Below, one piece after another: positions 1 to 18,675 of a DNA stretch of 64,000 bases. This DNA comes from Acidimicrobiia bacterium. Lineage in GTDB: Bacteria; Actinomycetota; Acidimicrobiia; IMCC26256; PALSA-610. Position numbers and translations under genes: made by a program. The stretch lies in NCBI GenBank assembly GCA_038209365.1, contig JBBQXS010000017.1:7111-71110 (forward strand), read 5' to 3'. Numbering within the stretch: position 1 is the first letter of the stretch; each line of letters begins with the position of its first letter. The notes under the pieces were generated by a model, which was given only the letters and a program-made list of their open reading frames with translations, did no database searches and was not told the DNA's origin.

Positions 1-722
1 GTTCGGGGAAGACGACGACGTCGGCCGTGCTTGCGCGCCGGCTCGCGCAGCAGGGCGCGCGCGTCGTGGCGCTCGACTGCGATACGAACCCCAACCTCGG
101 GATCTCGCTCGGCGTCGGGGAAGACGAGACCGAACGGCTGGTGGGAATGCGCCAAGCACTCGACGCGGCCGGCAACGCCGATCAGGATGCGCACGCCGCC
201 GACTGGGCCACGCTGCTCGACCGCTTCGGTACCGACGCGCCCGACGGCGTGACGCTCGCGGTCGTGACGCAGATCGACAACCCCGAACCGGGCTGTCCGT
301 GATGCGGTCTCTCTCCCGAGCAGTTGCTCGGGTCCGTTGATCCCGGCGCATCCGTCGTCGTCGCCGATTTCGAAGCCGGTCTGGGGACACTGACCCGCCT
401 CGGTGACGTGCGCGTCGATGTCGTGGTCGTCGTCGTCGAGCCGATGGCGAAGTCCATCGAAGTCGGCACCCGGGCCGCCGCGTACGCGGCGACACACTCG
501 ACCGACCGCGTCGTGGTGTTAGCCAACCGAGTACGCAACGACGACGACCTCGGCGCGATTCAGCGCGCCTTTCCCACGGCCGAGGTCGTGGTGGTCCCCG
601 ACGATCCCACCATCGGTGAGGCCGATCGCCGCGGGGTCGCGCCGCTCGATGTCGCGCCGACGTCGCCGGCCGTCGAAGCGATCAGCGCGCTTGCGTCGAT
701 CGTCGCGCCTCGCGCGCAGTGA
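1..722 (+). CDS. CooC/MinD-family P-loop NTPase (Ni-chaperone-like), 5'-partial, with in-frame TGA at 300-302 (candidate Sec codon, or a split pseudogene)
   Basis: Frame 3 reads SGKTTTSAV (Walker A tail) from the window edge. ORFs 27-302 and 324-722 share one frame and are separated only by the TGA. Both halves align with the paralog at 726-1484 (DxDxNPNLGISLG, ADFEAGLG, VVVEP, ANRV, PDDP). Confidence 0.8.
315..332 (+). promoter_or_regulatory. candidate bacterial SECIS-like hairpin downstream of UGA 300-302
   Basis: cccgagc (315-321) pairs perfectly with gctcggg (326-332), giving a 7-bp stem. The loop is AGUU (contains GU). The stem starts 12 nt after the UGA. Confidence 0.4.
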
Positions 723-725
723 CGC

Positions 726-1484
726 TCAGGTCGGGATCGCGGGGGTGGTCGTGTCGAGGAACTCGATGAGTGCGTCGACTGCCTCGCGCACCGGACCGGC
801 AAGCGTGCCCACGGCCGCACCCGCGCGGTCGGCGTCGGCAACCGCCGGTTCGTAAGGAATGACGCCGCACAACTCGACGCCGTACTCGGCGCACGTGTCG
901 GCGAAGAACGCGACGTCGTCGGGAAGACGCGCCTTGTTGCCCAACCCGTACGTGCGCGGGATCCCGAGCTCGTCGGCGAGGGCTTGGGTCCGCGCCGCGG
1001 TCACGACCGACTTCCGACTCGGTTCCATCACCACGACGAGAATGTCGGCGTGGGCCAGCGTGCCGCCCGATCGGCTCAAATGTTCGAGACCAGCTTCCAT
1101 GTCGACGATGGCAACGTCGGCATGGTCCTCGATAGCCATGCCGAGCAGGCTGCGGACCGCGGCGTGGTGCCCGCACGTGCATCCCGCGCCCGCCTGGTCC
1201 ACACGCATTGCAGACAGGAGGCGCGGGCCGGCCGGTGTCACGCGTCCGTATTCGCGCAGCAATGCGTCGGCGCCGAGCGTGCCCGAGCCCACCGCGAGGT
1301 TGCGCGGAATGACGGGGATCGCTTCGGTCTCGGCCAGCGACAGGCCGAGCGAGATGCCGAGGTTGGGGTTCGAGTCGGTGTCGACGGCGATGACCCGCTG
1401 TCCGGCGGCTTCGAAGCCCCGCGCCACCAGCGCAGCCACGGTGGTCTTCCCAACGCCGCCTTTGCCGACGATCCCCAACTTCAT
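726..1484 (-). CDS. CooC/MinD-family P-loop NTPase with intact CxC metal motif
   Basis: MKLGIVGKGGVGKTT Walker A, DTDSNPNLG, GAGCTCG motif, VDMEAGLEHL. GAGGAGG Shine-Dalgarno lies upstream of the ATG at 1484. Confidence 0.85.
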   Translation of the reverse strand: MKLGIVGKGGVGKTTVAALVARGFEAAGQRVIAVDTDSNPNLGISLGLSLAETEAIPVIPRNLAVGSGTLGADALLREYGRVTPAGPRLLSAMRVDQAGAGCTCGHHAAVRSLLGMAIEDHADVAIVDMEAGLEHLSRSGGTLAHADILVVVMEPSRKSVVTAARTQALADELGIPRTYGLGNKARLPDDVAFFADTCAEYGVELCGVIPYEPAVADADRAGAAVGTLAGPVREAVDALIEFLDTTTPAIPT

Positions 1485-1541
1485 CGTGCTGCCTCCTCGA
1501 TCCTTCCGAGTGTTGCACGCCCAACAAGGCGCCGGTGCCTC

Positions 1542-2330
1542 GTGACGCCGGCACGAATCGCGTTCATCGGCAAGGGCGGCGCCGGGAAGTCGGTGATCGC
1601 GGGCACCTTCGCCCGGCTGCTCGGCCGTCAGGGCACCCCGGTGCTCGCAGTGGACTCGGATCCCATGCCGGGCCTTGGGTTCTCGCTCGGCGTCCCTGGT
1701 GTCGACGCCCCGCTGCCGGACGACGCGCTCGAAGACGACGCGCCCGGTCCCGACGGGCGGCCCCAACCGGCGCGGCTGCGGCTCCCGCCGGTCGAGGCCA
1801 CCGAACGGTACGCGGCCGCGGCTCCTGACGGCGTGCGGTTCTTGCAGTTCGGCAAGTTGCGGGGCCACGTGCGCGAGCTTCAGCGTTCCCAGCAGGTGTT
1901 CCGCCGCATCATCGATGGGATGCGATCGGAGGGCTGGCACGTGATCGGCGACCTTCCGGGCGGCACTCGCCAGCCGTTCTTCGGGTGGGGTGACTTCGCC
2001 GACACTGTCGTCGTGGTGGCCGAGCCGACCGCGGCCTCGCTGCTCACCGCGCGCCGGCTCGCCAACCTCACCCGCTCGGACGCCGCGCCCGCTCGTCTGG
2101 TCGTCGTCGCCAACAAGGTGCGCCGCGCCGCCGAGGTCGATCGGGTGGCGGACCGCAGCGGTCTCGAGGTCGTCGGCGCCGTGCCGGACGACCCCGCGGT
2201 CCGTGCCGCCGACCGCGCGGGCCGGGCACTGCTCGACGTCGGCGCCGACAGCGACGCAGTACGCGCAATCGCCGACCTGGTAGCGCATCTGGTGGAGGCG
2301 CCATCGTCCGCAACCGACCCGGACGACTGA
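1542..2330 (+). CDS. CooC/ParA-like P-loop NTPase lacking the CxC motif
   Basis: GTG start; IAFIGKGGAGKS Walker A, VDSDPMPGLG, VVVAEP, VVVANKV. No Cys at the position of the paralogs' CxC. Confidence 0.75.
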   Translation: MTPARIAFIGKGGAGKSVIAGTFARLLGRQGTPVLAVDSDPMPGLGFSLGVPGVDAPLPDDALEDDAPGPDGRPQPARLRLPPVEATERYAAAAPDGVRFLQFGKLRGHVRELQRSQQVFRRIIDGMRSEGWHVIGDLPGGTRQPFFGWGDFADTVVVVAEPTAASLLTARRLANLTRSDAAPARLVVVANKVRRAAEVDRVADRSGLEVVGAVPDDPAVRAADRAGRALLDVGADSDAVRAIADLVAHLVEAPSSATDPDD

Positions 2331-2382
2331 TCACTACTCGCATTCTGCATGTACCTGCGGCAGACTGCCCGAGGAGGACTCG

Positions 2383-2643: not shown

Positions 2644-2922
2644 ATGTCGGCGGCCGCCATCGTCTCGCTCGTGTTGGTCGGCGTGTTGGTCGCCGCTCTC
2701 GCGTTCTATCTGATCTGGGTGGTCTTCATCTTGCGCCGGGCCGTCGACACGCTGGGCAAGGTGACATTCGGCGTGCGGGCGATCGCGTACCGCACCGCGC
2801 CCATCGGCGACCTTGTGACCGACATCAACGCCAACCTGAACGCGGTGGCCGACGCGCTCGAAGGGCTGACCGCGCCGCCCGCCGCGGACACGCCGACCGA
2901 GATCTCTACGGGCACGCGATGA
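2644..2922 (+). CDS. small single-pass membrane protein, paralog of 10709-10972
   Basis: N-terminal TM helix. KVTFGVRAIAYRTAPIG...INANL..VADALEGL aligns with KVSFGVRAIETQCAPIG...INGQL..VAGALEKL. Confidence 0.7.
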   Translation: MSAAAIVSLVLVGVLVAALAFYLIWVVFILRRAVDTLGKVTFGVRAIAYRTAPIGDLVTDINANLNAVADALEGLTAPPAADTPTEISTGTR

Positions 2923-2945: not shown

Positions 2946-3119
2946 ATGCCGGTCGAACTCTGCTGTGCGGACGTCGGGCTCGCCTGCCGCCACGTGACCA
3001 AAGCCGACAACGCGGAGGATCTCGTCGCCAAGGTCGCCGAGCACGCGCGCGACGCGCACGGCGTCGAGCTCAACCAAACGTTGATCGACTACGCCACCAC
3101 CAAAGTCCGCTCGTCCTGA
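2946..3119 (+). CDS. DUF1059-like small Cys/His metal-binding protein
   Basis: GGGAGGAG SD, then the ATG. MPVELCCADVGLACRHV...AEHARDAHG matches the remembered DUF1059 pattern (CxDxGxxC...H..xxHG). It lies 12 nt upstream of the hydrogenase small subunit. Confidence 0.6.
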   Translation: MPVELCCADVGLACRHVTKADNAEDLVAKVAEHARDAHGVELNQTLIDYATTKVRSS

Positions 3120-3131: not shown

Positions 3132-4451
3132 ATGGCAACGCGTCCCGCCCGGTCCCCGGCCGCGGATCTTCTCGACCTGCTCGGGCCGGTCGACAAATTC
3201 CACGACCACGACGTGCTCGGCGACTTCGGCATGCCGACGCGCGCGTCGATGGAGCAGATGCTTGCGCCGGTCGCGACCGTCGGGGCGCACTCCAAGATCG
3301 GCCCGCTCGAGAAAGTCCACGCGTTCTGGCTCGCGGGCATGAGTTGTGACGGCTGTTCGGTCGCGGTGACCGGCGCCCAGGCGCCGTCGGTCGAGAGCCT
3401 CGTGCTCGGCGCGCACCCGGGCCTCCCGCAAGTGATCCTGCATCACCCGGTGTTGAACGTGGAGTCGGGCCCGGCGTACATGCGCGCCCACGAGATGGCG
3501 TTCGCGGGTGAGCTCGATGCGCCGTACGTCGTGATCTTGGAAGGATCGGTCGCCGACGAGACGATCGCCGCGCGGGCCGGCGGCTACTGGTCGGGCCAGG
3601 GCGAAGAGCCATGGGGACTCGGCGGCGAACTGCGGACGGTCTCGACCGCCGAGTGGATCGCGCGCCTCGCGCCGGGGGCCGCCGCCATGCTCGCCATCGG
3701 CACGTGCGCGACGTGGGGAGGCATCCCGGCCGCCGAAGGAAACCCGACCGGCGCGATGAGCATGATGGACTTCTTGGGCAAGGACTACCGCAGCGCGCTC
3801 GGTGTGCCGGTGATCAACGTGCCGGGGTGTCCGCCGATCGGTGACAACTTCACCGAGACCGTCGCGGCGGTCCTGTACTTCCTGCAAGGTTTTGGTCCGT
3901 TGCCCGAGTTCGACGAACTTGGTCGGCCGGCATGGCTGTTCGGCGAGACCGTGCACCGCCATTGTGTGCGCGGCGCGTACTACGAAGAAGGCACCTACGC
4001 CAAGGAGTTCGGCGACCCCGAGTGCCTCGTGGAGATCGGTTGCTGGGGCCCGGTCGTCAACTGCAACATCACCTCGCGCGGGATGATCAACCACGTCGGC
4101 GGCTGCATGAACTCCGGCGGCGCGTGCATCGGCTGCACGATGCCGGGGTTCCCCGACAAGTTCACGCCGTTTTACAAGCGGCCCCCGGGCTCGGCCGTCT
4201 CCACCGCCGCCAGCCGGCTCATCGGCAGCATGATCCGGCCGCTGCGGAAGGTCACGAACTCGCACCTTAATCGGGAGGTGCGCTGGGACCATGAAGACGA
4301 GGTGCCCACCGGCTGGGCCACCGAGAACTCCGGACCCACCCTCACGGCCAACGTCGCCCACAAGTTCTACGACCGGCTCCGCCGATCGAACGACCACGCC
4401 AAGGGTCGGGGCGGCGAGTTCGGCAAGACCTCGACCCCGCGAAAGAGCTGA
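3132..4451 (+). CDS. [NiFe]-hydrogenase small subunit, no twin-arginine signal
   Basis: FeS ligand motifs GMSCDGCS, GTCATWGG, PGCPP, HRHCVRG, CWGPVVNCN, GGCMNSGGACIGC. GAGGAG SD. No RRxFxK motif in the N-terminus. Confidence 0.93.
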   Translation: MATRPARSPAADLLDLLGPVDKFHDHDVLGDFGMPTRASMEQMLAPVATVGAHSKIGPLEKVHAFWLAGMSCDGCSVAVTGAQAPSVESLVLGAHPGLPQVILHHPVLNVESGPAYMRAHEMAFAGELDAPYVVILEGSVADETIAARAGGYWSGQGEEPWGLGGELRTVSTAEWIARLAPGAAAMLAIGTCATWGGIPAAEGNPTGAMSMMDFLGKDYRSALGVPVINVPGCPPIGDNFTETVAAVLYFLQGFGPLPEFDELGRPAWLFGETVHRHCVRGAYYEEGTYAKEFGDPECLVEIGCWGPVVNCNITSRGMINHVGGCMNSGGACIGCTMPGFPDKFTPFYKRPPGSAVSTAASRLIGSMIRPLRKVTNSHLNREVRWDHEDEVPTGWATENSGPTLTANVAHKFYDRLRRSNDHAKGRGGEFGKTSTPRKS

Positions 4452-4457: not shown

Positions 4458-6359
4458 ATGTGCTTCAAGAACTTGCCCATCGAGTTCGACGACGACGGCC
4501 GGGCGCGCCTCAAGGAAGGCATCCCCGACCCGTACTCGATGATCAGCTCGCGTCCGCGCGTCGACATCACCGACGTCGAACGCGAAGAGCAGATCAAGCG
4601 GCTCATGGCCCGCAACGGTCACATCAAAGACATCAACATGGACCCGGTCACCCGCGTCGCGGGCGCGCTCGCGGTGCACATCACCGCCGACCTCGAAAAG
4701 GGCGAGCACCTCGACGCGCGCGCCCAGGCAACGCTGTTCCGCGGCTACGAGGTGATCCTGATGGGTCGCGACCCGCGCGACGCCATCTTCATCTCGTCGC
4801 GCGCGTGCGGGGTGTGCGGCGGTGTGCACAGCCACTGCTCCGCGTACGCGATCGAGATGGCGATGGGGTTGGCCCCGCCGCCGATGGGGACCGTTGTGCG
4901 GAACCTGGCCGAGGCCGCCGAGATGGGCTACGACAACCCGTTGCACCTCTACTTGTTGGCGGGCCCCGACTACTCCGAATCGGTCGTACGTGCGGTCAAT
5001 CCCGAGTTGTGGCCCAAGGCCGAGAAGTGGCTGTGTCCCGGCGCGGCGCACCACGGGTTCCGCACGATGGCCGATCTGATGACCGCGCTCAACCCGCTCA
5101 CCGGCGACCTGTACCGCGAGGGTCTCGACTTCACGCGGCTGTCGCGGGAGATGTTCGTCGTTCTCTACGGCAAGTATCCGCACCCCCAGGGCGTCGTGCC
5201 CGGCGGCGTGTCGAGCACGGTGACGCTGCAGACGCTGAACGAGTACCACTCCAAGCTCGGACGCATCTTCGACTACGCGCAGCGGATGCTCGCGGTGTGG
5301 AACGACATCCCCGAGTTCTTCTACGAGTGCGACGACCGCTACCGCCGCATTGGCGCGCGCCCAATGAACCTCGTCGACACCGGCTTCTGGGACGACCCGT
5401 ACGCGTACGACGCGACGTACGCGAACTGCGACGAGTGGGGGCAGCGCCGGTGGTCGACGCCGGGCGTCGTGATCGACGGCGAGCTCGTCACCTCGCGGCT
5501 GACCGACATCAACGTGGGGTGGGAAGAGTTCGTCGACCACTCCTACTACGACGAGTGGGACGGCAGCCGCTACCGCACCGACGACCTCGGCAACCCGCTC
5601 AGCCCGTACCACCCGTGGAACAAGCAGACGCTGCCCCGACCCGGCGGCAAGAACTGGAAAGAGAAGTACACGTGGGCGTGCACGCCGCGCTGGGACCGCC
5701 AGGTGGTGGAAGCGGGCGCATACGCGCGGCTGTTCACGACCGCCATGGCACAGAAGCTGCCGGCCAATCCCTTCATCGAAGCGACCGGGTCCAGTCTGCG
5801 CATGTTGGTGCCGAAAGGCCTCACCGGCGAAGCGGAAGTCGAGTGGCACGTGCCAGAGTCGTGGAACGCGCTCGAGCGCAACCGAGGCCGCGCCTTCCAC
5901 TATCTCTTCTCACAGCTCGTCGGTCTCAACACGTTATTGCAGGCCTACGACCTGATGAAGCAAGGCGAGACGCGCGTCGCGGCCGTGACCGCCGACGAGC
6001 TCGACCGCCACATTCCCAAAGACGAAGTGCGCAGCGTCGGATGGTGGGGCGCGGGCCGGGGCTATCTCACCCACCACATGGTGATGGAGAAAGGCCGCAT
6101 CGCGAACTACCAGATCTGCACGCCCTCGACGATCAACGCGTCACCACGCGACCCGTTCGACCAACCCGGCCCGTACGAAGAAGCCGTCATGAACACGCCG
6201 ATCCTCGAGGAGTTCGACGATCCCGGGCGATTCACGTCGATCGACATGCTGCGCGCGATCCGCAGCTTCGACCCGTGCATGCCGTGCACCACCCACGTCG
6301 ACACGGGCGACGGCACGGTCGTGCGCGAGGTGAACACCTGCTCGTGCGGCGCTGACTGA
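4458..6359 (+). CDS. [NiFe]-hydrogenase large subunit
   Basis: RGYE-x15-SRACGVCGGVH (L1) and FDPCMPCTTH (L2) give four Ni-ligand Cys. NASPRD is present. A 20-aa C-terminal tail follows the His. Confidence 0.95.
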   Translation: MCFKNLPIEFDDDGRARLKEGIPDPYSMISSRPRVDITDVEREEQIKRLMARNGHIKDINMDPVTRVAGALAVHITADLEKGEHLDARAQATLFRGYEVILMGRDPRDAIFISSRACGVCGGVHSHCSAYAIEMAMGLAPPPMGTVVRNLAEAAEMGYDNPLHLYLLAGPDYSESVVRAVNPELWPKAEKWLCPGAAHHGFRTMADLMTALNPLTGDLYREGLDFTRLSREMFVVLYGKYPHPQGVVPGGVSSTVTLQTLNEYHSKLGRIFDYAQRMLAVWNDIPEFFYECDDRYRRIGARPMNLVDTGFWDDPYAYDATYANCDEWGQRRWSTPGVVIDGELVTSRLTDINVGWEEFVDHSYYDEWDGSRYRTDDLGNPLSPYHPWNKQTLPRPGGKNWKEKYTWACTPRWDRQVVEAGAYARLFTTAMAQKLPANPFIEATGSSLRMLVPKGLTGEAEVEWHVPESWNALERNRGRAFHYLFSQLVGLNTLLQAYDLMKQGETRVAAVTADELDRHIPKDEVRSVGWWGAGRGYLTHHMVMEKGRIANYQICTPSTINASPRDPFDQPGPYEEAVMNTPILEEFDDPGRFTSIDMLRAIRSFDPCMPCTTHVDTGDGTVVREVNTCSCGAD

Positions 6360-6363: not shown

Positions 6364-7122
6364 GTGACCGGGTGGACCCTGGTCGGCGGGGTCGGCCAGC
6401 TGTTCCAGGGCGACCTCGACGTCGGTCGGCTGGCGGTCGACGCGCTCGCGGCCGCGGACCTCGGCCCGCACGTGCTCGTCGAGGAGCTGCATTACGGCGC
6501 GGTCGCAGTCGCCCAACGACTCCAAGAGCTCGATCCGATCGGGCTCGTGCTCGTCGGCGCCGAAGTCCGAGGGCGTATGCCGGGGACGGTGGAACGACGG
6601 CGCGTCCAACCGTTCGACAGTGTCGAGCCGGAGGAGGCCCAGCGCGCCGTCGCCGAGGCCGGCACCGGATACGTCGATATCGACCTCGTCATCGACGTCG
6701 CGCGCGCCTTCGGCGCGTTGCCGGACCGGACGGTTGTCGTCGCGGTCGAGCCGCTGACCGTGGGCCCGGGAGTGGAGCTGTCCGAACCCGCCCGACGCGG
6801 ACTCGACCGCGCGGTCGCGTTGGTACGCGAGGAGGCCGCGCGCGCACCGGTCCTCGAGCTTGCCGACCGGCTGCGGCGCGTCGTCGCCGACCCGGCACGG
6901 CTGGAACCGAGCGCCGCGCTGGACGCGCTGCACTCACTGCTGCGCGAGCTCGCGGTGCTCGACGCCGATGGTCGTTGGGGTCACACGTTCCGGTGGCGCG
7001 ACCGTCTGCGGCAAGCCATTTCCGACGGCGACACCGGCGCAGGCATGGACCATCTCGACTGGGGATTGTGGTGGGCGCTCATCGAGGCGCTTGATCGGTT
7101 GGAGGCGGCCGAGTCGGCGTGA
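6364..7122 (+). CDS. hydrogenase maturation protease-like protein, divergent, with C-terminal extension
   Basis: LVGGVGQLFQGDLDVGRLAV resembles the GxGNxxxxDDGxG N-terminus of HupD/HybD-type peptidases. About 90 extra C-terminal residues. Starts 4 nt after the large subunit stop. Confidence 0.6.
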   Translation: MTGWTLVGGVGQLFQGDLDVGRLAVDALAAADLGPHVLVEELHYGAVAVAQRLQELDPIGLVLVGAEVRGRMPGTVERRRVQPFDSVEPEEAQRAVAEAGTGYVDIDLVIDVARAFGALPDRTVVVAVEPLTVGPGVELSEPARRGLDRAVALVREEAARAPVLELADRLRRVVADPARLEPSAALDALHSLLRELAVLDADGRWGHTFRWRDRLRQAISDGDTGAGMDHLDWGLWWALIEALDRLEAAESA

Positions 7123-7867
7123 CGTCGTAACCGGAGAGGTCAGGCGGCTGGTCGATGTCGCCAACGGCCGGCTCGAGGATGCCGAGATGTTGCGGCCGAA
7201 TCGCGACGCGGCTTCCGCGTGCCGTCGTCACGACGAGCGCGCCGTCAGCCAAGCACGCGCTCGCCTCCCCCTCGGTCATCGGGCCACCCGGTCCGAGCGG
7301 AATGAGCCGAGCCCGCACCCGCTGTCCCAACGTCGTGCACCGCGCGGTGACGGTGGCGAGCACTGTGTCGGGATCCTGAGCGAGGCGGGCCTCGATCGCG
7401 TCGGCGGCGCGGGCGAGCAGTGGACCGCGCGGCGGTTCGACGCCGCGCAGCCACACGTTGATCACCGCCCAGGTCAATCCGTCGGGACCGAGCTCCGACT
7501 CGACGCCGACGGCCCCGGCCAGTTCACCGTCGCGCCAGACCTCGTCGGGCCAGTGCACCTCGCCACCGGCGAGCGCGTCCGCCACGCCGGCCACCGCGAC
7601 CAGATAGAGCCATCCCTCGCGCTCGGCGGGCAACGGCGGATGCACGACGAGCGAGAAGCCCACGTCGCGCTCGGGGACGAGCGCCCACGGCCAGCCGGCC
7701 CGCCCTCTCGGCGACGCCTGGTAGCCGGCCACGACCACTGCACCATCGGGGGCGCCCGCCCGCGCCCACGCCTGGGCGTCAGCGGCCGTCGAGAGGAGCG
7801 CCGGGTAGACCCGAGCCGGCCGCTCCGCCAACCACTGCGCCAACGCCTCGGGCGAGAGATCGTTCAT
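7079..7867 (-). CDS. biotin/lipoate protein ligase (BPL_LplA_LipB)-like protein
   Basis: BirA-catalytic-domain-like layout (QASPRGRAGWPW, HWPDEVW, GAVGVE). Its ATG overlaps the stop of the upstream TPR gene (ATGA). Confidence 0.5.
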   Translation of the reverse strand: MNDLSPEALAQWLAERPARVYPALLSTAADAQAWARAGAPDGAVVVAGYQASPRGRAGWPWALVPERDVGFSLVVHPPLPAEREGWLYLVAVAGVADALAGGEVHWPDEVWRDGELAGAVGVESELGPDGLTWAVINVWLRGVEPPRGPLLARAADAIEARLAQDPDTVLATVTARCTTLGQRVRARLIPLGPGGPMTEGEASACLADGALVVTTARGSRVAIRPQHLGILEPAVGDIDQPPDLSGYDVTPTRPPPTDQAPR

Positions 7868-10972: not shown

Positions 10973-11366
10973 CGTCTCGCCCCCCAAGTCGGCCGCGCTG
11001 CGTGCCATGTACTGGCGCAGCGAAATCCTTCAGGTCATGTACTGGCTCCAAGGTGAAGGGCTCGGTGACGTCGTCGACGCGCCGTTGCTCGAGCGCTTCC
11101 TCGGCGTCGACGCATCCAACGGCGTCACGTATCTCGACCGTCTCGTCGTCGAGGGCTACCTCATCCGCCAGGGTGAGTGGTACGCGTTGTCCGACACCGG
11201 TATGGCGGAGGGCGCGACCGAATTCGCGATGGCCTTCTCGGATCTGACGCGACCCGCGCACGGTGAATGCAGCGACGACTGCTGGTGCCACGCCTCGGTC
11301 GAAGAAGCCGAAGCGTGTCTCGCGGGCCGCCAACATGATCATCACCACGACGGCCACGACCACTAA
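10965..11366 (+). CDS. winged-helix-like protein with Cys cluster and His-rich C-terminal tail (putative metal-binding)
   Basis: GTG overlaps the upstream stop by 8 nt. HGECSDDCWCH...C motif. C-terminus is QHDHHHDGHDH. Confidence 0.6.
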   Translation: MPDVSPPKSAALRAMYWRSEILQVMYWLQGEGLGDVVDAPLLERFLGVDASNGVTYLDRLVVEGYLIRQGEWYALSDTGMAEGATEFAMAFSDLTRPAHGECSDDCWCHASVEEAEACLAGRQHDHHHDGHDH

Positions 11367-11716
11367 TGCGCATCGTCGACAGCACCGTTCTGCCGAGAGC
11401 CCATCTGCGCGTGGTGCTGCTTTTGCTCTTGCGCGCCGGCTCCTCCCATGGCTACGACCTCCTCGAAGAGACGCGTCGTCTCGGGATGCGCACCGCGGAA
11501 GCAGCCGGTGTGTATCGCACGCTGCGCGCGCTCGAGCTCGACAACTGCGTGACGTCGTGGTGGGAACCGTCGCAGTCGGGGCCGGCGCGCCGCACGTACG
11601 CGATCACGCCCGCAGGTGAGTTCGCATTGGCGGAAGGGATACAAGAGCTCGACGGGCTGCGGCGGTCGCTCAACCGGCTGCTCGCCCGCTATCGCGACAT
11701 GGACCGGGACGGGTGA
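11366..11716 (+). CDS. PadR-family transcriptional regulator
   Basis: LLLLLRAGSSHGYDLLEE...GVYRTLRALELDNCVTSWWE...RRTYAITPAGE is the typical PadR wHTH. TAATG overlap with the upstream gene. Confidence 0.85.
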   Translation: MRIVDSTVLPRAHLRVVLLLLLRAGSSHGYDLLEETRRLGMRTAEAAGVYRTLRALELDNCVTSWWEPSQSGPARRTYAITPAGEFALAEGIQELDGLRRSLNRLLARYRDMDRDG

Positions 11717-12471
11717 GGGTTGCCGTCGCCGGGAAGGGCGGCGCCGGCAAGACAACGATCGCGGCAACGGCAGCGCGTTTGGGTGCTCGCTCCGGTCGTC
11801 CGGTTGTCGCCGTCGACGCCGATAGCAACCCGAACCTCGCGGTCGCGCTCGGTGCCGGCGCGCCCGGGGTTGCGGTTGTGACGCCGAGTCTTCCGCCGTC
11901 GCTCGTGTCACGGCGCCTCGACCGGACGGGCTTCGTGTGTCCGCTCGACGCGGTGCTCGCGGAGTACGCGATCTCCGCGCCCGACGGGGTGCGGTTGGTT
12001 GCGATGGGCGCGCCGGGCCACGCCGAGGAGGGATGCCTGTGCTCCGCCCATGCGGTGGTGAGCACGCTGCTCGCGGCGCTCGGCGAGCGACCCGACACGC
12101 TCACGGTCGTCGATATGGAAGCGTCGCCCGAGCACTTGAGTCGAGGCACCGCCCGTCACGCCGACGTGCTGCTGCTTGTCGCCGAGCCCTACTACCGCGC
12201 GCTCGAAGCGGTCGGTCGGCTGGCCGACCTCGCCCGCGAACTTCCGATCGCGCGCGTGGCGGTGGTCGCGAACAAGGTTCGTTCCGAAGACGACGACGCG
12301 GCAATCTCCGCCTATTGCGATCGACACGGGTTGGAACACGTCGCCACCATTGCGTGGAGCGAGGATGCGATGGCCGCCGATCGTGCCGGTCGGAGCGTGC
12401 TCGACACTGCGCCAGACGGCGCCCTGGTGCGCTCGGTCGACGAACTGCTCACGTGCATCGCGGGCCGCTGA
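11713..12471 (+). CDS. CooC/MinD-family P-loop NTPase with CxC motif
   Basis: VAVAGKGGAGKTT, VDADSNPNL, EEGCLCSAH, VDMEASPEHL, VVANKV. GTGA overlap with padR. Confidence 0.85.
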   Translation: MRVAVAGKGGAGKTTIAATAARLGARSGRPVVAVDADSNPNLAVALGAGAPGVAVVTPSLPPSLVSRRLDRTGFVCPLDAVLAEYAISAPDGVRLVAMGAPGHAEEGCLCSAHAVVSTLLAALGERPDTLTVVDMEASPEHLSRGTARHADVLLLVAEPYYRALEAVGRLADLARELPIARVAVVANKVRSEDDDAAISAYCDRHGLEHVATIAWSEDAMAADRAGRSVLDTAPDGALVRSVDELLTCIAGR

Positions 12472-12472: not shown

Positions 12473-12745
12473 ATGTGCCTCGGCATCCCCGGCCAGATCG
12501 TCGAGATCATCGACCCGGCCCTGCACCGCGCCGTGCTCGATGTCGAAGGCGTACGCCGGGAAGTGAACATCGGCCTGCTCGTCGACGACACCGACCCGGT
12601 CGCGGTGGGCGATTGGGTGCTCGTGCACGTGGGGTTCGCGATGGCGAAGATCGACGCCGACGAGGCCGCCCGTACCCTCGCCTTCGTGCGCGAGCTCGAG
12701 GAGTTCATCGACGAGATCGATCTCATGGATGGCGGAACTGCGTGA
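12473..12745 (+). CDS. hypC: hydrogenase maturation chaperone HypC/HupF
   Basis: MCLGIPGQIVEI N-terminus and VGDWVLVHVGFAM core. Confidence 0.92.
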   Translation: MCLGIPGQIVEIIDPALHRAVLDVEGVRREVNIGLLVDDTDPVAVGDWVLVHVGFAMAKIDADEAARTLAFVRELEEFIDEIDLMDGGTA

Positions 12746-13890
12746 GGTTCGTCGACGAGTACCGCGATCCGGTCGCGGCACGCGCGACATTGGCCGAGAT
12801 CGAGCGACTCGCCGCTGAGCAGCCGGCGCGCGCGTTCATGGAAGTGTGCGGAGGGCACACCCACACCATCTACCGCCACGGCATCGAACATCTCCTGCCG
12901 GCGTCGGTCGAGCTGGTGCACGGTCCCGGGTGCCCGGTCTGTGTGATCCCGATGGGCCGCATCGACGACGCCATCGCAGTTGCCCACCAGCCTGGCGTGA
13001 TCTTCACCTGCTTCGGCGACATGCTGCGCGTGCCCGGCTCCAACGGGAGCCTTCTGCGCGCAAAGGCGAAGGGTGCCGACGTCCGGGTCGTGTACTCGCC
13101 GCTCGACGCGCTTCGCCTGGCCGGTGAACATCCGGATCGGCCGGTGGTTTTCTTCGCGGTCGGGTTCGAGACCACCGCCCCGTCGACCGCGCTGACGCTT
13201 CGTCGCGCGCGCGAATTAGGGACGCATAACTTCTCCGTCTTCTGCAACCACGTCACGATCGTCCCGCCGCTGAAGGCGATCCTCGACTCCCCCGACCTCC
13301 GACTCGACGGCTTCCTCGGGCCCGGACACGTGTCGACGGTCATCGGCAACCGGCCGTATCGGTTCGTGCCCGAGCGGTACGGCAAGCCGCTGGTGACGAC
13401 CGGTTTCGAGCCCCTCGACATCCTCCAGGCGATCGTGATGCTCCTGTGCCAGCTGCGTGACGGGCGGTGCGAGGTCGAGAACCAATACACGCGGGTGGTG
13501 CGGGACGAAGGAAACCCGCGCGCGCTCGAGGTCATCAGGGAGGTCTTCGAGCTGCGACCCCATTTCGAGTGGCGCGGCTTGGGCTTCATCAGCCAGAGCG
13601 CGTTGAAGCTCCGCGCCGAGTTCGCGCCCTGGGACGCGGAGGTCGCGTTCGACGTCCCCGGTGTGCGCGTCGCGGACCCCAAGGCGTGTCAGTGCGGCGA
13701 GGTCTTGAAGGGCGTGCTCAAGCCATGGCAGTGCAAGGTGTTCGGAACCGCCTGTACGCCGGAAACGCCGATCGGCACGTGCATGGTCTCCTCCGAAGGT
13801 GCATGCGCGGCGTACTACAACTTCGGTCGTCGCATCCCGACTCGTTCGACCCGCGTCGGTGTCGCACGCTCGGCCATCGCTGACCGTTAA
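12742..13890 (+). CDS. hypD: hydrogenase maturation protein HypD
   Basis: CGGHTH, GPGCPVCV, FETTAP, GPGHVS, PxHVSxxxG-type blocks and C-terminal ...SSEGACAAYY. GTGA overlap with hypC. Confidence 0.95.
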   Translation: MRFVDEYRDPVAARATLAEIERLAAEQPARAFMEVCGGHTHTIYRHGIEHLLPASVELVHGPGCPVCVIPMGRIDDAIAVAHQPGVIFTCFGDMLRVPGSNGSLLRAKAKGADVRVVYSPLDALRLAGEHPDRPVVFFAVGFETTAPSTALTLRRARELGTHNFSVFCNHVTIVPPLKAILDSPDLRLDGFLGPGHVSTVIGNRPYRFVPERYGKPLVTTGFEPLDILQAIVMLLCQLRDGRCEVENQYTRVVRDEGNPRALEVIREVFELRPHFEWRGLGFISQSALKLRAEFAPWDAEVAFDVPGVRVADPKACQCGEVLKGVLKPWQCKVFGTACTPETPIGTCMVSSEGACAAYYNFGRRIPTRSTRVGVARSAIADR

Positions 13891-13892: not shown

Positions 13893-14642
13893 ATGTCCGC
13901 CGCGCCGTTCGTCGATGCCTCGGGCCTCGACATCGACGCGGCGCAGGGTCGCGACCTTGCCTCCGCGTCGTTCTCACTGGCGCGCCGCTTCGCGGCCGGC
14001 GCGACGATGTGGTGCATCGCGCCGGCATGGCCGCAGCACGCGCGTCATGTTGCAGTCGAGTTCGTGCATCCCGTGACCATCGGCAAACGCGCCCTTGCGG
14101 CCGTGGCCGTCACGGGCCCGCAGCCGGTAGCGGAGTTGCGATCGGTTGTCCGGGCCGGCGACGTCTTGTGCGCGATCTCTACCGCCGACGAATCGATCGT
14201 CGTCGACGCTCTACGTCGCGCCCCCGCGTGGGGTCTCGAGACACTCTGGATCGGCTGCGGCCCCACTCAACCGCGAGCCGGTGCCGCCGGCCATGTGTTG
14301 TGGGTCGACGACCGTGACGGACGTGCCCCGTACGACGGCAGCATCGTGCTGCGCTACCACGTGTTGTGGGAGCTCACGCATGTGTGCATCGACCACCCCG
14401 GGCTCATGCGCCCGCAAGCCGAAGCCGCAGACGGGGCCGATACCTGCATCACCTGCTCGGACGAGGGCAGCATCGGCGAGGTCGTCGACGGCGTTGCGGA
14501 CGGCGACGCGAGAGTACGCACGCCGCGCGGAGTCGAGGTGATCGACGTCACGCTTGTGGCCCCGGTGCGAGGCGGAGATCTCCTCCTCCTGCACGCGGGC
14601 GTCGCAATCACGCGGATCGAATCGGAGCACGCCGGTGGCTGA
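13893..14642 (+). CDS. degenerate SIS-like domain fused to a HypC-like OB domain
   Basis: The N-terminal half parallels GmhA-type SIS, but GNGGS is replaced by APAWP; GDVLCAISTADES is retained. The C-terminal CITCSDEGSIGEVV...GGDLLLLHAGVAI resembles HypC. Confidence 0.65.
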   Translation: MSAAPFVDASGLDIDAAQGRDLASASFSLARRFAAGATMWCIAPAWPQHARHVAVEFVHPVTIGKRALAAVAVTGPQPVAELRSVVRAGDVLCAISTADESIVVDALRRAPAWGLETLWIGCGPTQPRAGAAGHVLWVDDRDGRAPYDGSIVLRYHVLWELTHVCIDHPGLMRPQAEAADGADTCITCSDEGSIGEVVDGVADGDARVRTPRGVEVIDVTLVAPVRGGDLLLLHAGVAITRIESEHAGG

Positions 14643-15288
14643 AGGAACGGACTTTCTGTATCCCTTCATCGACGGTGACGAGCGCGATGCCGCACCGCTC
14701 CTCGCGGATCTCGCGGCGTCAGCGCGCGTCAAGTCGGCCGAGAGCAGGCGTACCCGTACGCGCGACATCGAGGGCAACGAGGAGACGCTGGCCGCGGCCG
14801 CACGGGCGATGGCCGACCGCTTCGTAGCGAACGGCCGACTGTTCACCTTCGGCGACGGCGGCAGCTCCACCGACGCTGCGCTGCTCGCAAACCTGTTCGC
14901 CGATCCCATCTCCGGGCCGTCGCTGCCCGCGCGTTGCCTCGTGGAGGACCCCGCAGTGATCACCGCACTCGGCAACGACGTCGGCTTCGAGCTCGTGTTC
15001 TCGCGGCAGCTCATCGCGCACGGACACGCCGGCGACATTGCGCTGGGCTTTTCCACGAGCGGCAACTCCCCCAACCTGTTGCACGCGTTCGCCGAAGCGC
15101 GCGGGCGCGGAATGCTCACAATCGGATTGAGCGGCTACGACGGCGGGGGGATGCGCGAAGCTCTCGACCACTGTCTGATCGTCGGTTCCGACAGTGTGCA
15201 CCGGATCCAGGAGACCCAGGCCGCGATCGGCCTCGCACTGTGGAAGCGCGTGCAATCCCTGCTGCCTTCGGCGGCGCGTGATGGCTGA
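14635..15288 (+). CDS. SIS-domain (GmhA/phosphoheptose-isomerase-like) protein
   Basis: FGDGGSSTDAA, ALGNDVGFELVFSRQL, GDIALGFSTSGNSPN, IGLSGYDGG. 8-nt overlaps with both neighbours. Confidence 0.8.
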   Translation: MAEGTDFLYPFIDGDERDAAPLLADLAASARVKSAESRRTRTRDIEGNEETLAAAARAMADRFVANGRLFTFGDGGSSTDAALLANLFADPISGPSLPARCLVEDPAVITALGNDVGFELVFSRQLIAHGHAGDIALGFSTSGNSPNLLHAFAEARGRGMLTIGLSGYDGGGMREALDHCLIVGSDSVHRIQETQAAIGLALWKRVQSLLPSAARDG

Positions 15289-16378
15289 GTCGACCGGCGC
15301 GTCACGCGATCGCGAATCCGCGGTGCTCGACCGGATCGAATCGTTTCGGCGGCGCCGCCCCCGCTTGACCGACGACGTCGTCACGCTTGCCCACGGCGCC
15401 GGCGGCAAGGCCTCCGCGGCGCTCGTCGACGCAGTGTTCCTCGACGCGTTCGCGCCGGCTGACCGCGGTCCACTCGCCGATGCCGCGTCGCTCACGCTGC
15501 CGACCGGAGAACGGCTCGCGTTCACGACCGACTCGTTCGTGGTCCAGCCCCGCCGCTTCCCCGGCGGTTCGATCGGCGACCTCGCGGTCAATGGCACGGT
15601 GAACGACCTCGCTGTGAGTGGCGCAATTCCACAATGGTTGTCGGCGGCGTTCGTGATCGAGGAAGGCTTCCCGGTCGCCGAGTTGCGTGAGCTCGTCGCG
15701 GACATGGCGCGCGCGGCCGCGGCTGCGCGCATCGAGATCGTGACCGGCGACACGAAGGTCGTCGGCAAGGGCGCGGCCGATGGTCTGTACATCACGACGA
15801 CCGGCGTGGGCGTGATTCCCGCCGGACGCGCGCTCGGACCGGAACGGGTCGAAGCGGGTGACGTGGTGCTTGTCTCGGGCACGATCGCGGATCACGGCAT
15901 GGCGGTGATGCTGGCGCGCGGTGACCTCGCGCTCGAGGCCGACATTCGTTCGGACACTGCACCGCTGGGCGCGCTCGTGGAGTCGTTGCTTGCAGCCGCG
16001 CCGTCGACGCGCTGGATGCGGGACCCGACGCGAGGCGGGGTGGGCACCGTGTGCAACGAGCTCGCGCGCGATGTCGATCTCGCGGTCGTGCTCGACGAGA
16101 GTGCATTGCCGATCTTGCCGCAAGTCGCAGGCGCGTGTGATCTACTCGGCATCGACCCGCTCTACGTCGCCAACGAAGGAAAACTGCTCGCGATCGTGGC
16201 GGTCGACGAAGCTGAGGCCGCGCTCGCCGCGCTGCGAGCGAACTCCGCCGGCCGCGACGCGACGCGCGTCGGCGAGATCGCACCAGAACCGGAAGGCATC
16301 GTCGTGCTCCGCACCACATTTGGCGGCACGCGCATCGTCGACATGCTCGTCGGTGATCCGCTGCCGCGCATCTGCTGA
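15281..16378 (+). CDS. hypE: hydrogenase maturation protein HypE
   Basis: AIR-synthase-like fold motifs (HGAGG, GDLAVNGTVNDLAVSGA, TGDTKV) and the C-terminal PRIC. Confidence 0.95.
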   Translation: MAESTGASRDRESAVLDRIESFRRRRPRLTDDVVTLAHGAGGKASAALVDAVFLDAFAPADRGPLADAASLTLPTGERLAFTTDSFVVQPRRFPGGSIGDLAVNGTVNDLAVSGAIPQWLSAAFVIEEGFPVAELRELVADMARAAAAARIEIVTGDTKVVGKGAADGLYITTTGVGVIPAGRALGPERVEAGDVVLVSGTIADHGMAVMLARGDLALEADIRSDTAPLGALVESLLAAAPSTRWMRDPTRGGVGTVCNELARDVDLAVVLDESALPILPQVAGACDLLGIDPLYVANEGKLLAIVAVDEAEAALAALRANSAGRDATRVGEIAPEPEGIVVLRTTFGGTRIVDMLVGDPLPRIC

Positions 16379-16383
16379 TACAC

Positions 16384-18675
16384 ATGGCCCGAACTCGAAT
16401 GCGCGTCACGGGAACCGTCCAGGGAGTCGGCTTCCGGCCGTTCGTGCATCGACACGCGGTCGAACTCGGTCTCGTCGGGTTCGTCCGCAACGACTCGCAG
16501 GGCGTGTTGATCGAGGTCGAAGGCGAGCCCGACCTCATCGCCGAGCTCGCTCGCCTGCTCGTCGACGAACCGCCGCCGCTCGCGCGCGTCGGCAACGTCG
16601 CCGCCACCGCGGTCGCGTCGAAGCCGACGGACTCGGGATTCCGTATCGTCGACAGCGTCGAACGCGACGCGCCGTCGGTTCCAGTGAGCGTCGACACCGC
16701 CACCTGCGACGAGTGCCTGTTCGAGGTAAACGACCCCGCCGACCGACGTCGCGGCTATGCATTCACGAACTGCACGAACTGCGGGCCGCGTTACACGATC
16801 GTGTTGTCGGTCCCGTATGACCGCGAGTTCACGACGATGGCGGGTTTCGCGATGTGCTCGGCATGTCAGGCCGAATACGACGACCCGACGAACCGCCGGT
16901 TTCACGCCCAGCCCAATGCCTGCGCCGATTGCGGGCCCCAGCTCGAATGGCGCTTGCCGGGCGGCGCGCGCGTTGCCGTACGCGACGAAGCGCTCGCGGC
17001 GGCAGTCAACGCGCTGCGCGACGGGAAGGTGGTCGCGGTCAAGGGCGTAGGTGGATACCACCTTGCGGTCGACGCTACCAACGCGACCGCGGTCGCAATC
17101 CTGCGACGACGAAAGGCCCGCGATGACAAGCCGTTCGCGCTGATGGTTCGTGATCTCGAGGTGGCACAACGTCTCGTCGTGCTCGACGACGTCGCGATCG
17201 GCGCGCTGACGTCGATTCAGCGACCGATTGTCGTTGCGCCACGCGTCAAGAGCGCGCCGGTCGCCGAAGCGGCGGCGCCGGGCCTGCCTGATCTCGGCGT
17301 GATGCTGCCGTACACGCCGCTCCATCACTTGTTGCTCGCAGGTGTCGGGCGCCCGCTGTTGATGACGAGTGGCAACCTCAGCGACGAGCCGATCGCGCAC
17401 GACGATGCCGATGCCTTCGCACGGTTGGGCCCGCTCGTCGACGCCTTCCTCACTCACGACCGCCCGATCCACATTCGTTGCGACGACTCCGTCGCGCGCT
17501 CGACTCGCGGTCGCGTCCAGATGTTGCGCCGGTCGCGCGGCTACGCGCCCGAACCGTTGTCGCTTCCAACGCCTGCGCGCAGGGCCGTACTCGCGGTCGG
17601 TGCCGAGCTCAAAAGCACGATCGCCGTCGCCAAGGAGCGGATCGTCGTCGCGAGCCATCACCTCGGCGATCTCGAACACCTGCCGACGTTCCGGTCGTTC
17701 CTCCAGGCGCTCGATCATCTCCGTCACCTGTACGGCGTGGTGCCGGACGTCGTTGCCCACGACCTGCACCCGGAGTACCTGTCGACGAAGCTCGCGTTGG
17801 AGCTCGACCTCCCGACGCGCGGCGTGCAACATCACCACGCGCACGTCGCGTCATGCCTCGTCGAGCACGGCCGCACCGCGCCCGTGCTCGGGCTTGCCTT
17901 CGACGGCATGGGCTACGGCAGCGACGGGACGATGTGGGGTGGCGAGTTTCTCGTTGCCGACCTCGACGGGTTCACGCGCGTCGCCCACGTCCGCCCGGTC
18001 ACGATGCCCGGCGGTGTCGCCACGATCCGGGAGCCCTGGCGCATGGGGCTCACCTGGGCGACGCAGGCAGGCGTGGCGGACGCAGCTCGCACGATCTTCG
18101 CCGACGTCGACGCCCGCAGCCGAGAAGCAGTAGGCGACCTCATCGCGCGCGCCGCGGGTCCGGTCACGACGAGCATGGGCCGCCTGTTCGACGCCGTCGC
18201 GGCATTGCTCGGAGGCCGACGCCGCGTGAGTTACGAAGGGCAGGCCGCGATCGAGCTCGAGGCCCTCGCTCGAACCGTGGCCCGGCGCGACGCGCCTGTG
18301 TACGACGGGCTGTGCCTCAACGGGGATGCTGGCGGTGTCGGCATCATCGACCCGTCACCGCTGGTGGCGGCGTTGCTCGAGGAACGGCTTCGCGGCATCG
18401 CGACGCCGTTGCTGGCAGCCGGTTTCCATGAAGGGCTCGGACGCGCCGCCGCCGTGCTCGCGACGCGGCTCGCGCGCAAACATGGTCTCGATACCGTCGT
18501 GTTGACGGGTGGCGTGTTCCAGAACGTTCGGTTCACCGAGGTCGTCGAGTCCGCGCTTGTTCAAGAGGGTCTGCACGTGCTCGTGCACCAACACGTACCA
18601 CCCAACGACGGCGGGATCAGCATCGGTCAAGCCGCGATAGCGGCGCGTCTCGGTGCCGAAAGCGAGACGGTGTGA
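16384..18675 (+). CDS. hypF: carbamoyltransferase HypF
   Basis: Acylphosphatase domain (VTGTVQGVGFRPFV), two CxxC-x18-CxxC zinc fingers, YrdC-like and Kae1-like domains, and C-terminal NDGGISIGQA. Confidence 0.95.
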   Translation: MARTRMRVTGTVQGVGFRPFVHRHAVELGLVGFVRNDSQGVLIEVEGEPDLIAELARLLVDEPPPLARVGNVAATAVASKPTDSGFRIVDSVERDAPSVPVSVDTATCDECLFEVNDPADRRRGYAFTNCTNCGPRYTIVLSVPYDREFTTMAGFAMCSACQAEYDDPTNRRFHAQPNACADCGPQLEWRLPGGARVAVRDEALAAAVNALRDGKVVAVKGVGGYHLAVDATNATAVAILRRRKARDDKPFALMVRDLEVAQRLVVLDDVAIGALTSIQRPIVVAPRVKSAPVAEAAAPGLPDLGVMLPYTPLHHLLLAGVGRPLLMTSGNLSDEPIAHDDADAFARLGPLVDAFLTHDRPIHIRCDDSVARSTRGRVQMLRRSRGYAPEPLSLPTPARRAVLAVGAELKSTIAVAKERIVVASHHLGDLEHLPTFRSFLQALDHLRHLYGVVPDVVAHDLHPEYLSTKLALELDLPTRGVQHHHAHVASCLVEHGRTAPVLGLAFDGMGYGSDGTMWGGEFLVADLDGFTRVAHVRPVTMPGGVATIREPWRMGLTWATQAGVADAARTIFADVDARSREAVGDLIARAAGPVTTSMGRLFDAVAALLGGRRRVSYEGQAAIELEALARTVARRDAPVYDGLCLNGDAGGVGIIDPSPLVAALLEERLRGIATPLLAAGFHEGLGRAAAVLATRLARKHGLDTVVLTGGVFQNVRFTEVVESALVQEGLHVLVHQHVPPNDGGISIGQAAIAARLGAESETV

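Follow-up and report, generated by a model that had tools for sequence, protein, structure and literature searches.

The hydrogenase locus and its CooC-like ATPases

The 64,000-nucleotide stretch of DNA analyzed here (positions 7,111 to 71,110 of contig JBBQXS010000017.1 from an Acidimicrobiia bacterium, assembly GCA_038209365.1; hereafter, the window) opens with a [NiFe]-hydrogenase locus that spans positions 1-18675. This locus combines the genes for the two structural subunits and the maturation proteins HypC, HypD, HypE, and HypF with four genes for ATPases related to CooC, the chaperone of carbon monoxide dehydrogenase (CODH). Because mechanical lists of open reading frames (ORFs) are unreliable at the GC content of the window (~68%), gene boundaries were set by homology instead. 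Gene calling from the GC content of third codon positions (GC3) was tried as well and proved misleading, joining the minus-strand CooC2 gene to the antisense of CooC3. The features on which the argument turns are listed below, with counts of loci referring to the related loci described in this section.

1..722, plus strand: CooC1-type ATPase, a predicted selenoprotein with the motif G-C-P-U-C-G; Pfam CbiA, 1.6e-10; the 5' end is lost at the window edge
300..302, plus strand: in-frame TGA, the predicted selenocysteine (Sec) codon, at the same aligned position in 11 species
315..332, plus strand: hairpin resembling a selenocysteine insertion sequence (SECIS), with a 7-bp stem (CCCGAGC/GCTCGGG) and an AGUU loop, 12 nt after the TGA
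726..1484, minus strand: CooC2-type ATPase with a CTC motif; Pfam CbiA, 1.1e-10; 27 loci
1542..2330, plus strand: CooC3-type ATPase without a Cys motif; Pfam CbiA, 5.8e-12
3132..4451, plus strand: hydrogenase small subunit HylS, 439 aa; TIGR00391, 7e-43
4458..6359, plus strand: hydrogenase large subunit HylL, 633 aa; best match in the PDB 5AA5 (group 1h), 2.7e-142
6297..6356, plus strand: C-terminal tail of HylL beyond the cleavage-site His, VDTGDGTVVREVNTCSCGAD, with a CxC motif; the alignment with mature 5AA5 stops at His613
11713..12471, plus strand: CooC4-type ATPase with a CLC motif, immediately 5' of hypC; Pfam CbiA, 1e-12
12473..12745, plus strand: HypC; 38-54% identity to annotated HypC of group 1h loci, PF01455 in homologous loci
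12742..13890, plus strand: HypD; 52-66% identity to annotated HypD
15281..16378, plus strand: HypE; 51-55% identity to annotated HypE
16384..18675, plus strand: HypF; 44-46% identity to annotated HypF

The first-pass annotation of this DNA had recognized the structural subunits and the four hyp genes, and both assignments hold, the former through direct profile and PDB matches and the latter through 38-66% identity to genes of canonical loci. HylL shares 37.7-40.6% identity with four canonical group 1h large subunits (from Cupriavidus, Streptomyces, Methylocystis, and Mycobacterium), and its best solved structure, 5AA5, is the group 1h enzyme of Cupriavidus necator. HylS carries CDGC at residue 72, which gives a four-Cys proximal cluster where group 1h enzymes have CDGD, and is ~80 aa longer than the small subunits of group 1h (352-366 aa). 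Five ORFs of 82-92 aa, each encoding a single hydrophobic helix, are conserved in related loci. Ortiz and co-workers defined group 1l (Hyl) by less than 40% identity to group 1h, a four-Cys proximal cluster, a C-terminal extension of ~100 aa in the small subunit, and the proteins HylTM1-5; in their Table S7, the type of NifU-domain protein present here is labeled HhyE (10.1101/2020.08.06.239558). Judged by these defining features, the enzyme encoded at 1-18675 is predicted to be a group 1l (Hyl) hydrogenase of the high-affinity type.

Like the group 1l hydrogenases of Hymenobacter roseosalivarius and of Antarctic soil metagenome-assembled genomes (MAGs), the enzyme of the window combines ~40% or less identity to group 1h with a four-Cys proximal cluster, a long small-subunit C-terminus, five single-pass membrane proteins, the NifU-like HylE, and HupD. 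In contrast to the published clusters, the subunit genes here are adjacent, and the five membrane-protein genes are divided 2+3. Hydrogenases of group 1l were reported to be the most abundant ones in Antarctic desert soils and were linked to atmospheric H2 oxidation; for Mackay Glacier soils, the reported abundance is ~0.6 copies per genome (Table S6), and the MGR MAGs of that study contributed a number of the related loci analyzed here (10.1101/2020.08.06.239558).

Scanning a single genome for each GTDB species yielded 336 relatives of CooC4, of which the best 80 loci were analyzed together with 6 more obtained by exact look-up (86 loci altogether, 80 of them from different GTDB species). Each fetched locus extends at most 10 kb to either side of the match, and its content was scored by tblastn with the proteins of the window. 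In 84 of the 86 loci, CooC4 is found together with a winged helix-turn-helix (wHTH) protein and a PadR-family regulator, beside HylS/HylL, HylTM, NifU, protease, and hyp genes. This recurrence of the module beside the same hydrogenase is far beyond chance and bears out the co-occurrence of the gene set with one hydrogenase lineage that the first-pass annotation had put forward for testing. The full hypC/D/E/F set was detected in at least 22 loci; CooC4 is present in all 86, compared with 22-42 for hypD, hypE, and hypF. The hosts belong to Acidimicrobiia, Mycobacteriales, Pseudonocardiales, Propionibacteriales, and Euzebyales, with one Limnocylindria MAG, and include the isolates Amycolatopsis marina, Modestobacter sp. 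DSM 44400, Pseudonocardia kunmingensis, and P. nigra. Within the window, twelve plus-strand genes, from a trio of HylTM-like genes through hypF, overlap or lie at most 5 nt apart. The placement of one CooC-like gene directly before hypC, noted earlier, is exact: CooC4 ends at 12471 and hypC starts at 12473, with 1 nt between them. These findings support the conclusion that the CooC-like genes are integral to the hydrogenase maturation operon, being both conserved and coupled in translation.

All four ATPases match Pfam CbiA (E-values of 1e-10 to 1e-12), and the top PDB match for each is CooC1 of Carboxydothermus hydrogenoformans (3KJE), with E-values of 1.9e-23 for CooC2, 1.5e-21 for CooC4, 9.4e-09 for CooC1, and 2.9e-07 for CooC3. 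The lead of 3KJE over other PDB matches is at least 15 orders of magnitude for CooC2 and CooC4 (for CooC4, ~1e-21 compared with 1e-5 or worse for the next relatives) and small for CooC3. The four genes were correctly located in the first-pass annotation, except that the one at 726-1484 needs its strand corrected to minus. None of the four proteins scores above the cut-off of an NCBIfam model, and they accordingly fall outside any curated family; weak Pfam matches were detected to ParA/NUBPL and Fer4_NifH. The more than 1900 homologs of CooC4 are nearly all unnamed or annotated as 'AAA family ATPase' or 'CO dehydrogenase maturation factor'.

In CooC4, the deviant Walker A motif (GKGGxGK[ST]) reads GKGGAGKT, in CooC2 GKGGVGKT, and in CooC3 GKGGAGKS; that of CooC1 lies outside the window, and its orthologs carry GKGGSGKT. 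The states of the metal-site motif are as had been read from the letters, that is, two intact CxC motifs, one CxU, and one Cys-less protein. The CLC of CooC4 and the CTC of CooC2 align with Cys112/Cys114 of 3KJE, the motif of CooC1 reads C-P-TGA-C, in which the TGA matches the second Cys of the 3KJE CxC, and CooC3 has no Cys at this position. Both the Walker A motif and the sequence G-C-x-C-x-A-H are invariant among 29 CooC4 orthologs.

Identity matrices and average-linkage clustering cleanly separate four paralog groups, with 52-63% identity within and 28-38% between them. In the related loci, which encode four to seven CooC-like proteins each, CooC2 is frequently placed between hypE and hypF, and CooC3 always lies directly 5' of CooC1 in the same direction. 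A locus from an Antarctic Mycobacteriales MAG (L067, 2858-10723) contains seven consecutive CooC-like genes beside the hydrogenase, including both Sec-type and Cys-type CooC3-CooC1 pairs.

Compared with the CooC proteins of C. hydrogenoformans (3KJE) and Rhodospirillum rubrum, the ATPases share the MinD-class SIMIBI fold, the size of ~250 aa, the deviant Walker A motif, and, in CooC2 and CooC4, the position of CxC. They differ in sequence (22-29% identity), in the apparent client, which would be a [NiFe]-hydrogenase instead of CODH, and in number, with the four to seven paralogs per locus including Cys-less and C-P-Sec-C ones; furthermore, they form part of a hyp operon, where two wHTH genes precede them. 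Neither the window nor the Pfam-annotated loci L002-L007 yielded a nickel-dependent CODH (Ni-CODH).

The absence of HypA and HypB from the window, which the first-pass annotation had pointed out, was borne out by three scans, namely, a six-frame motif scan (GNLVCP for HypB, MHE and CxxC...CxxC for HypA), tblastn with Streptomyces probes at E<=10, and Pfam scans of the larger ORFs. Neither protein was detected by motif or by tblastn at E<=10 in the 1.31 Mb of the 86 related loci. On four canonical group 1h loci used as controls (L088-L091), the same probes recovered HypA in 4/4 and HypB in 3/4. In all four, including those of Methylocystis and Mycobacterium, HypA lies no more than 12 kb from the large subunit; the gene order is protease-HypA-HypB-HypF-HypC-HypD-HypE in Streptomyces and HypF-HypC-SIS-HypD-HypE-HypA-HypB in Cupriavidus. 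Conversely, none of the four control loci contains CooC-like, wHTH, PadR, or HylTM genes.

The HylL tail and the predicted selenocysteine of CooC1

In [NiFe]-hydrogenases, an endopeptidase cuts off a C-terminal extension of the large subunit after nickel insertion. In the HylL of the window, this tail comprises 20 residues past His613 (6297-6356) and ends with REVNTCSCGAD. The motif REVN[TS]CxC, followed by 2-4 terminal residues, is present in 52 of the 52 large subunits of the lineage, and none of the four group 1h controls has a Cys in the tail. A CxC motif on the tail that gates nickel insertion, in a cluster that also encodes CxC ATPases, would fit a hand-over of nickel by ligand exchange.

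The in-frame TGA of CooC1 recurs at the same codon in 11 species, and in single alignments the protein similarity runs across it. The position is occupied by TGC in Amycolatopsis marina (L036) and in a more distant paralog group, and the protein database contains numerous full-length Cys forms, in which the motif is GCPCCG and identity reaches 77%. Downstream of the TGA lies a hairpin in which 94.8% of the cells are paired across the 11 TGA-containing sequences and two stem pairs are changed on both sides (C-G to U-A and C-G to G-C). None of 500 shuffles reached its covariation score, and in controls with a slid partner 13-46% of the cells pair; with only 11 related sequences, this covariation amounts to moderate evidence on its own. 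In the Cys gene of A. marina, the peptide SPEQLL is retained and the hairpin is destroyed. We take the distance of the hairpin from the TGA and the G-U in its loop to resemble the SECIS of E. coli fdhF. From these alignments, we predict that TGA 300-302 is a selenocysteine codon. Because Sec would replace a metal-site Cys in 11 species, the metal site is probably functionally critical.

That this TGA is a true stop codon, and CooC1 accordingly a pseudogene or a split gene, appears improbable. High-GC genomes use TGA more often than any other stop codon, neither tRNA-Sec nor sel genes were detected in the window or in 11 loci, and no Rfam family matches the hairpin. A true stop, however, would have to recur at the same codon in 11 species with protein similarity on both sides, where orthologs up to 77% identical have Cys, and would leave a hairpin that is conserved through compensatory changes and gone precisely in the Cys version. 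Moreover, the Sec decoding machinery is functional in aerobic Pseudonocardiaceae (PMC7176365).

The predicted protein resembles [NiFeSe]-hydrogenases and other bacterial selenoproteins in that Sec takes the place of a metal-binding Cys, the UGA is followed by a SECIS-like hairpin within the coding sequence, and Cys orthologs exist. It differs from [NiFeSe]-hydrogenases in that Sec would lie in a maturation ATPase and not in the enzyme itself. We found no report of a selenoprotein of the CooC/MinD family in a literature search.

In one Actinomycetes MAG (L048, 16201-16893, minus strand), the CooC1 ortholog has TGA at both Cys positions flanking Pro (U-P-U-C); this could mean that a single hairpin serves two Sec codons spaced by 6 nt, or else reflect an error in sequencing or a pseudogene.

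Proposed nickel insertion and its alternative explanations

Nickel insertion by HypA and HypB is regarded as a universal step in the maturation of [NiFe]-hydrogenases. In the maturation operon of the present lineage, HypA and HypB are missing and CooC-type ATPases are present, the pattern expected of non-orthologous displacement. The best explanation of this pattern appears to be that the maturation operon of this group 1l cluster has lost HypA and HypB. From the gene content and the conserved motifs, we propose, with a probability of roughly 55%, that the CooC-type ATPases insert nickel for this hydrogenase in place of HypB and HypA. The non-canonical route of nickel delivery suggested in the first-pass annotation is supported in part, by CooC-like genes that are integral to the operon, hypAB that are locally missing, a CxC invariant in 29 CooC4 proteins, and no CODH nearby; the role assigned in it to a 'His-tailed' protein is not supported (see below). 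The ATPases would act at the same presumed step as HypA and HypB, when nickel enters the enzyme that already has Fe(CN)2CO and awaits endoproteolysis, and their genes hold the same place in the operon, beside hypC/D/E/F. There is no sequence kinship between the two systems, the ATPases being of the MinD class whereas HypB is a G3E GTPase and HypA a Zn/Ni metallochaperone, and no HypA-like partner was recognized here.

A scheme that accommodates these components can be outlined. HypC, HypD, HypE, and HypF, together with the HupF-like and SIS-domain proteins encoded in the same operon, would build Fe(CN)2CO and load it into apo-HylL. In an ATP-closed CooC4 dimer, the two CxC motifs would jointly grip Ni(II), in the manner in which CooC1 serves CODH; ATP hydrolysis would then open the dimer and release nickel to HylL, possibly via the CxC of the HylL tail, and the HupD-type endopeptidase next would cleave the tail. 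CooC2 (with CxC), CooC3 (without Cys), and CooC1 (with C-P-Sec-C) would be further specialized members of the set, CooC3 and CooC1 probably forming a heterodimer. These three may acquire or relay nickel in oxic, nickel-poor conditions, where a selenolate would bind the metal more tightly and withstand oxidation.

The involvement of a MinD-class ATPase in hydrogenase nickel insertion would not be new in principle because there is a precedent in Thermococcales. In Thermococcus kodakarensis, a 'HypB' of the Mrp/MinD type takes the role of HypB; it works with HypA and is not known to have a CxC nickel site. The group 1l ATPases would similarly place a MinD-class protein in the role of HypB, with the differences that HypA is missing and that the ATPases have a Cys or Sec site of their own. 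A search of PDB sequences with CooC4 at E<=0.01 did not return the Thermococcales protein.

Several observations weigh against the replacement of HypA and HypB. The absence of hypAB is local, applying to the window and to the at most 10 kb of each locus around the match, and hyp genes can act in trans, a single set of them being shared by several hydrogenases in E. coli. As NifH and Nbp35/Mrp illustrate, the Cys motif at a MinD-class dimer interface can also hold an iron-sulfur (Fe-S) cluster. Group 1h enzymes are normally accompanied by hypAB, and at least one of the organisms with the cluster (Modestobacter sp. DSM 44400, L055) also owns an enzyme of this group. Its canonical group 1h small subunit is named in Table S7, so that some hosts probably own hypAB, which could serve both enzymes (10.1101/2020.08.06.239558). 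In the Euzebyales MAG MGR_bin197, a gene for a CooC3-like, Cys-less ATPase lies divergently beside that for a group 1h small subunit (contig SD2897-2912_k127_3625892, same table; 10.1101/2020.08.06.239558); therefore, the association with CooC is not exclusive to clusters without HypAB. On these grounds, the ATPases could be auxiliary, aiding nickel supply, storage, or another step, with the metal inserted by HypA and HypB (perhaps SlyD) encoded elsewhere. We take this explanation seriously and nevertheless consider it unlikely. In canonical clusters hypAB accompany hypCDEF, whereas the loci studied here, at least 22 of them with a hypC/D/E/F set of their own, never include hypA or hypB, and CooC4 is more constant than hypD, hypE, and hypF (86 versus 22-42 loci).

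Less probable still is a function in the delivery or repair of Fe-S clusters, in the manner of Mrp/Nbp35/ApbC or NifH, or in the positioning of the membrane-tethered enzyme, in the manner of MinD/ParA. The targets in the Fe-S case would be the small subunit, with its four-Cys proximal cluster and long C-terminal extension, or the NifU-like HylE. The family itself is of the MinD/Mrp class, with the weak Pfam matches to ParA/NUBPL and Fer4_NifH, CooC3 lacks any Cys motif, and the cluster encodes both a NifU protein and five membrane anchors, all of which would suit such a function. However, the nearest solved relative by far is the nickel-insertion ATPase CooC1 rather than Mrp or MinD (for CooC4, an E-value of 1e-21, with all others at 1e-5 or worse), the motif has the CxC form of CooC and not CxxC, which, to our knowledge, is the form in Mrp/Nbp35, CooC4 is coupled to hypC, the gene for the large-subunit chaperone, and another CxC is located on the large-subunit tail, which governs nickel insertion. 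Still further down the scale, to the point of being nearly negligible, is the possibility that the paralogs serve a Ni-CODH/acetyl-CoA synthase encoded elsewhere and adjoin the hydrogenase by chance. The Mo-Cu CO dehydrogenase is not known to use CooC. The names of some homologs, 'CO dehydrogenase maturation factor' or 'CooC', would agree with a service to CODH; against it stand the synteny with the hydrogenase, which is repeated in 80 species, the failure to detect CODH in the window or in the annotated loci L002-L007, and the nature of the hosts, which are aerobic Actinomycetota of desert and polar soils, where CO oxidation is ascribed to the Mo-Cu enzyme (10.1101/2020.08.06.239558).

Replacement of HypA and HypB by CooC-type ATPases can be extended into a fuller model, which we hold tentatively and with less than even confidence. 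Under this model, group 1l hydrogenases would be matured without HypA and HypB by a CooC set that delivers nickel to the CxC of the HylL tail, one member of the set containing Sec, so that scavenging of atmospheric H2 would depend on selenium as well. If group 1l enzymes do use CooC-type ATPases in place of HypA and HypB, CooC would no longer be a chaperone of CODH alone, and the system would reveal a means of inserting nickel in air among organisms that subsist on trace resources. These CooC genes then would be needed to produce O2-tolerant, high-affinity hydrogenases in a heterologous host. A Sec-containing metallochaperone ATPase would represent a new selenoprotein family, tying selenium availability to H2 scavenging, and the CxC of the HylL tail offers a concrete, mutable handle on the hand-over of nickel.

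In the original description of group 1l, the legend of Fig. S5 labels such genes CbiA, PadR, and DUF1059 (10.1101/2020.08.06.239558). The CbiA genes, nickel insertion, the absence of HypA and HypB, the tail motif, and the Sec codon are not discussed in that paper or in later ones, and literature searches on CooC and hydrogenase, on group 1l, and on a CooC selenoprotein likewise found no discussion of the topic. We regard the Sec-containing paralog and the CxC tail as the most original elements.

Putative regulators and other genes of the window

The remaining features of the locus are as follows.

2383-2637 and 2644-2922, plus strand: two small single-pass membrane proteins, HylTM-like, with one N-terminal hydrophobic helix each (Kyte-Doolittle 2.8-2.9); ~21 loci
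2946..3119, plus strand: small Cys/His protein, DUF1059; Pfam PF06348, 2.9e-11; ~15 loci
6364..7122, plus strand: degenerate endopeptidase-like protein, 252 aa; TIGR00072, 5.5e-11, 42.7 bits (cut-off 47.45), no Pfam match; 51 loci
7079..7867, minus strand: conserved 262-aa protein, no Pfam match; 30 loci
7864..9060, minus strand: TPR protein; Pfam TPR_12, 8.9e-12; 30 loci
9076..9579, plus strand: maturation endopeptidase of the HupD/HycI type; TIGR00072, 4.2e-32, 111 bits
9576..10100, minus strand: NifU-domain protein of the HylE/HhyE type; Pfam NifU, 2.2e-18
10204-10452, 10449-10709, and 10709-10972, plus strand: three small single-pass membrane proteins, HylTM-like (Kyte-Doolittle 2.8-3.1); 51-57 loci
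10974..11366, plus strand: winged-helix Cys/His protein ('His-tailed'); HGEC-x3-CWCH-x8-C invariant; 84/86 loci
11366..11716, plus strand: PadR-family regulator; PF03551 in homologous loci; 86/86 loci
13893..14642, plus strand: 249-aa protein with a C-terminal HupF/HypC-like domain; PF01455, 2.3e-05 (below the cut-off), PF01455 in homologous loci
14635..15288, plus strand: SIS-domain protein; PF13580, 1.9e-15; canonical group 1h hyp operons have one too

The protein at 10974-11366, for which a part in nickel delivery had been suggested on account of its His-rich tail, looks instead like a regulator. Its 1287 homologs all lack both Pfam domains and names, and many of the family, though not all, have the His-rich tail, the invariant part being the core HGEC-x3-CWCH-x8-C. 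The AlphaFold2 model is a winged helix (mean predicted local distance difference test score, pLDDT, of 78), and Foldseek matches it to regulators of the MarR/OhrR, MntR, and DtxR types with template modeling (TM) scores of ~0.5. Given the winged-helix fold and the variable tail, we consider the protein more likely to be a sensor or regulator than a nickel chaperone, which also counts against this part of the proposed delivery route. It was considered as an analog of HypA or CooJ, and this was rejected as the primary reading because of its resemblance to MarR/MntR-like winged helices and the variability of the tail. A PadR gene always lies next downstream of it. The spacing of the Cys residues also recalls that of Fe-S sensor motifs. 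The wHTH Cys/His protein and PadR are most likely metal- or redox-sensing regulators of the operon. The small Cys/His protein at 2946-3119, also drawn into the nickel route in the first-pass annotation, is indeed a DUF1059 protein; it is not a constant part of the set, having been found in only ~15 loci.

One of the two endopeptidase homologs reported previously, that at 9076-9579, is clear (111 bits); the other, at 6364-7122, is only a weak relative whose match stays below the threshold (42.7 bits). The latter protein directly follows the large subunit in 51 loci, and a non-catalytic chaperone that binds the tail is possible. A 'biotin-ligase-like' label for 7079-7867 was dropped because Pfam gives no support for it. 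In the 249-aa protein at 13893-14642, the last ~50 residues are HypC/HupF-like and are preceded by CITCSDEG; 38 loci retain it, with hypC or hypD on one side and the SIS gene on the other, and canonical group 1h loci yield weak matches only to its SIS-like middle part.

A scan of the window with Rfam detected no riboswitch. Exact look-up of the large subunit and CooC4 returned no record, and that of CooC2 returned a single 1.5-kb Logan contig. The rest of the window encodes unrelated functions, for example, aconitase, a PAS/GAF/SpoIIE protein, a ROK kinase, and an acyl-CoA ligase, together with threonine-dehydratase-like and CoA-transferase genes, a subtilase, and several large ORFs without Pfam matches. 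A 939-aa protein encoded at 47800-50619 (minus strand) joins a lactonase/SMP-30 beta-propeller to several bacterial Ig-like domains, and the strand opposite to it carries a run of short ORFs with high GC3 that resemble shadow ORFs. Right after hypF, the region 19000-32300 contains large Pfam-less ORFs at 21679-23328 (minus strand), 25244-26662 (plus strand), and 30218-32227 (minus strand), a weak match to a phage-integrase SAM-like domain at 24335-25243, and a tRNA-Arg(CCT) at 26824-26899; the GC content falls to 0.64-0.65 near 20-22 kb and 26-28 kb, and the region may be an integrated element.

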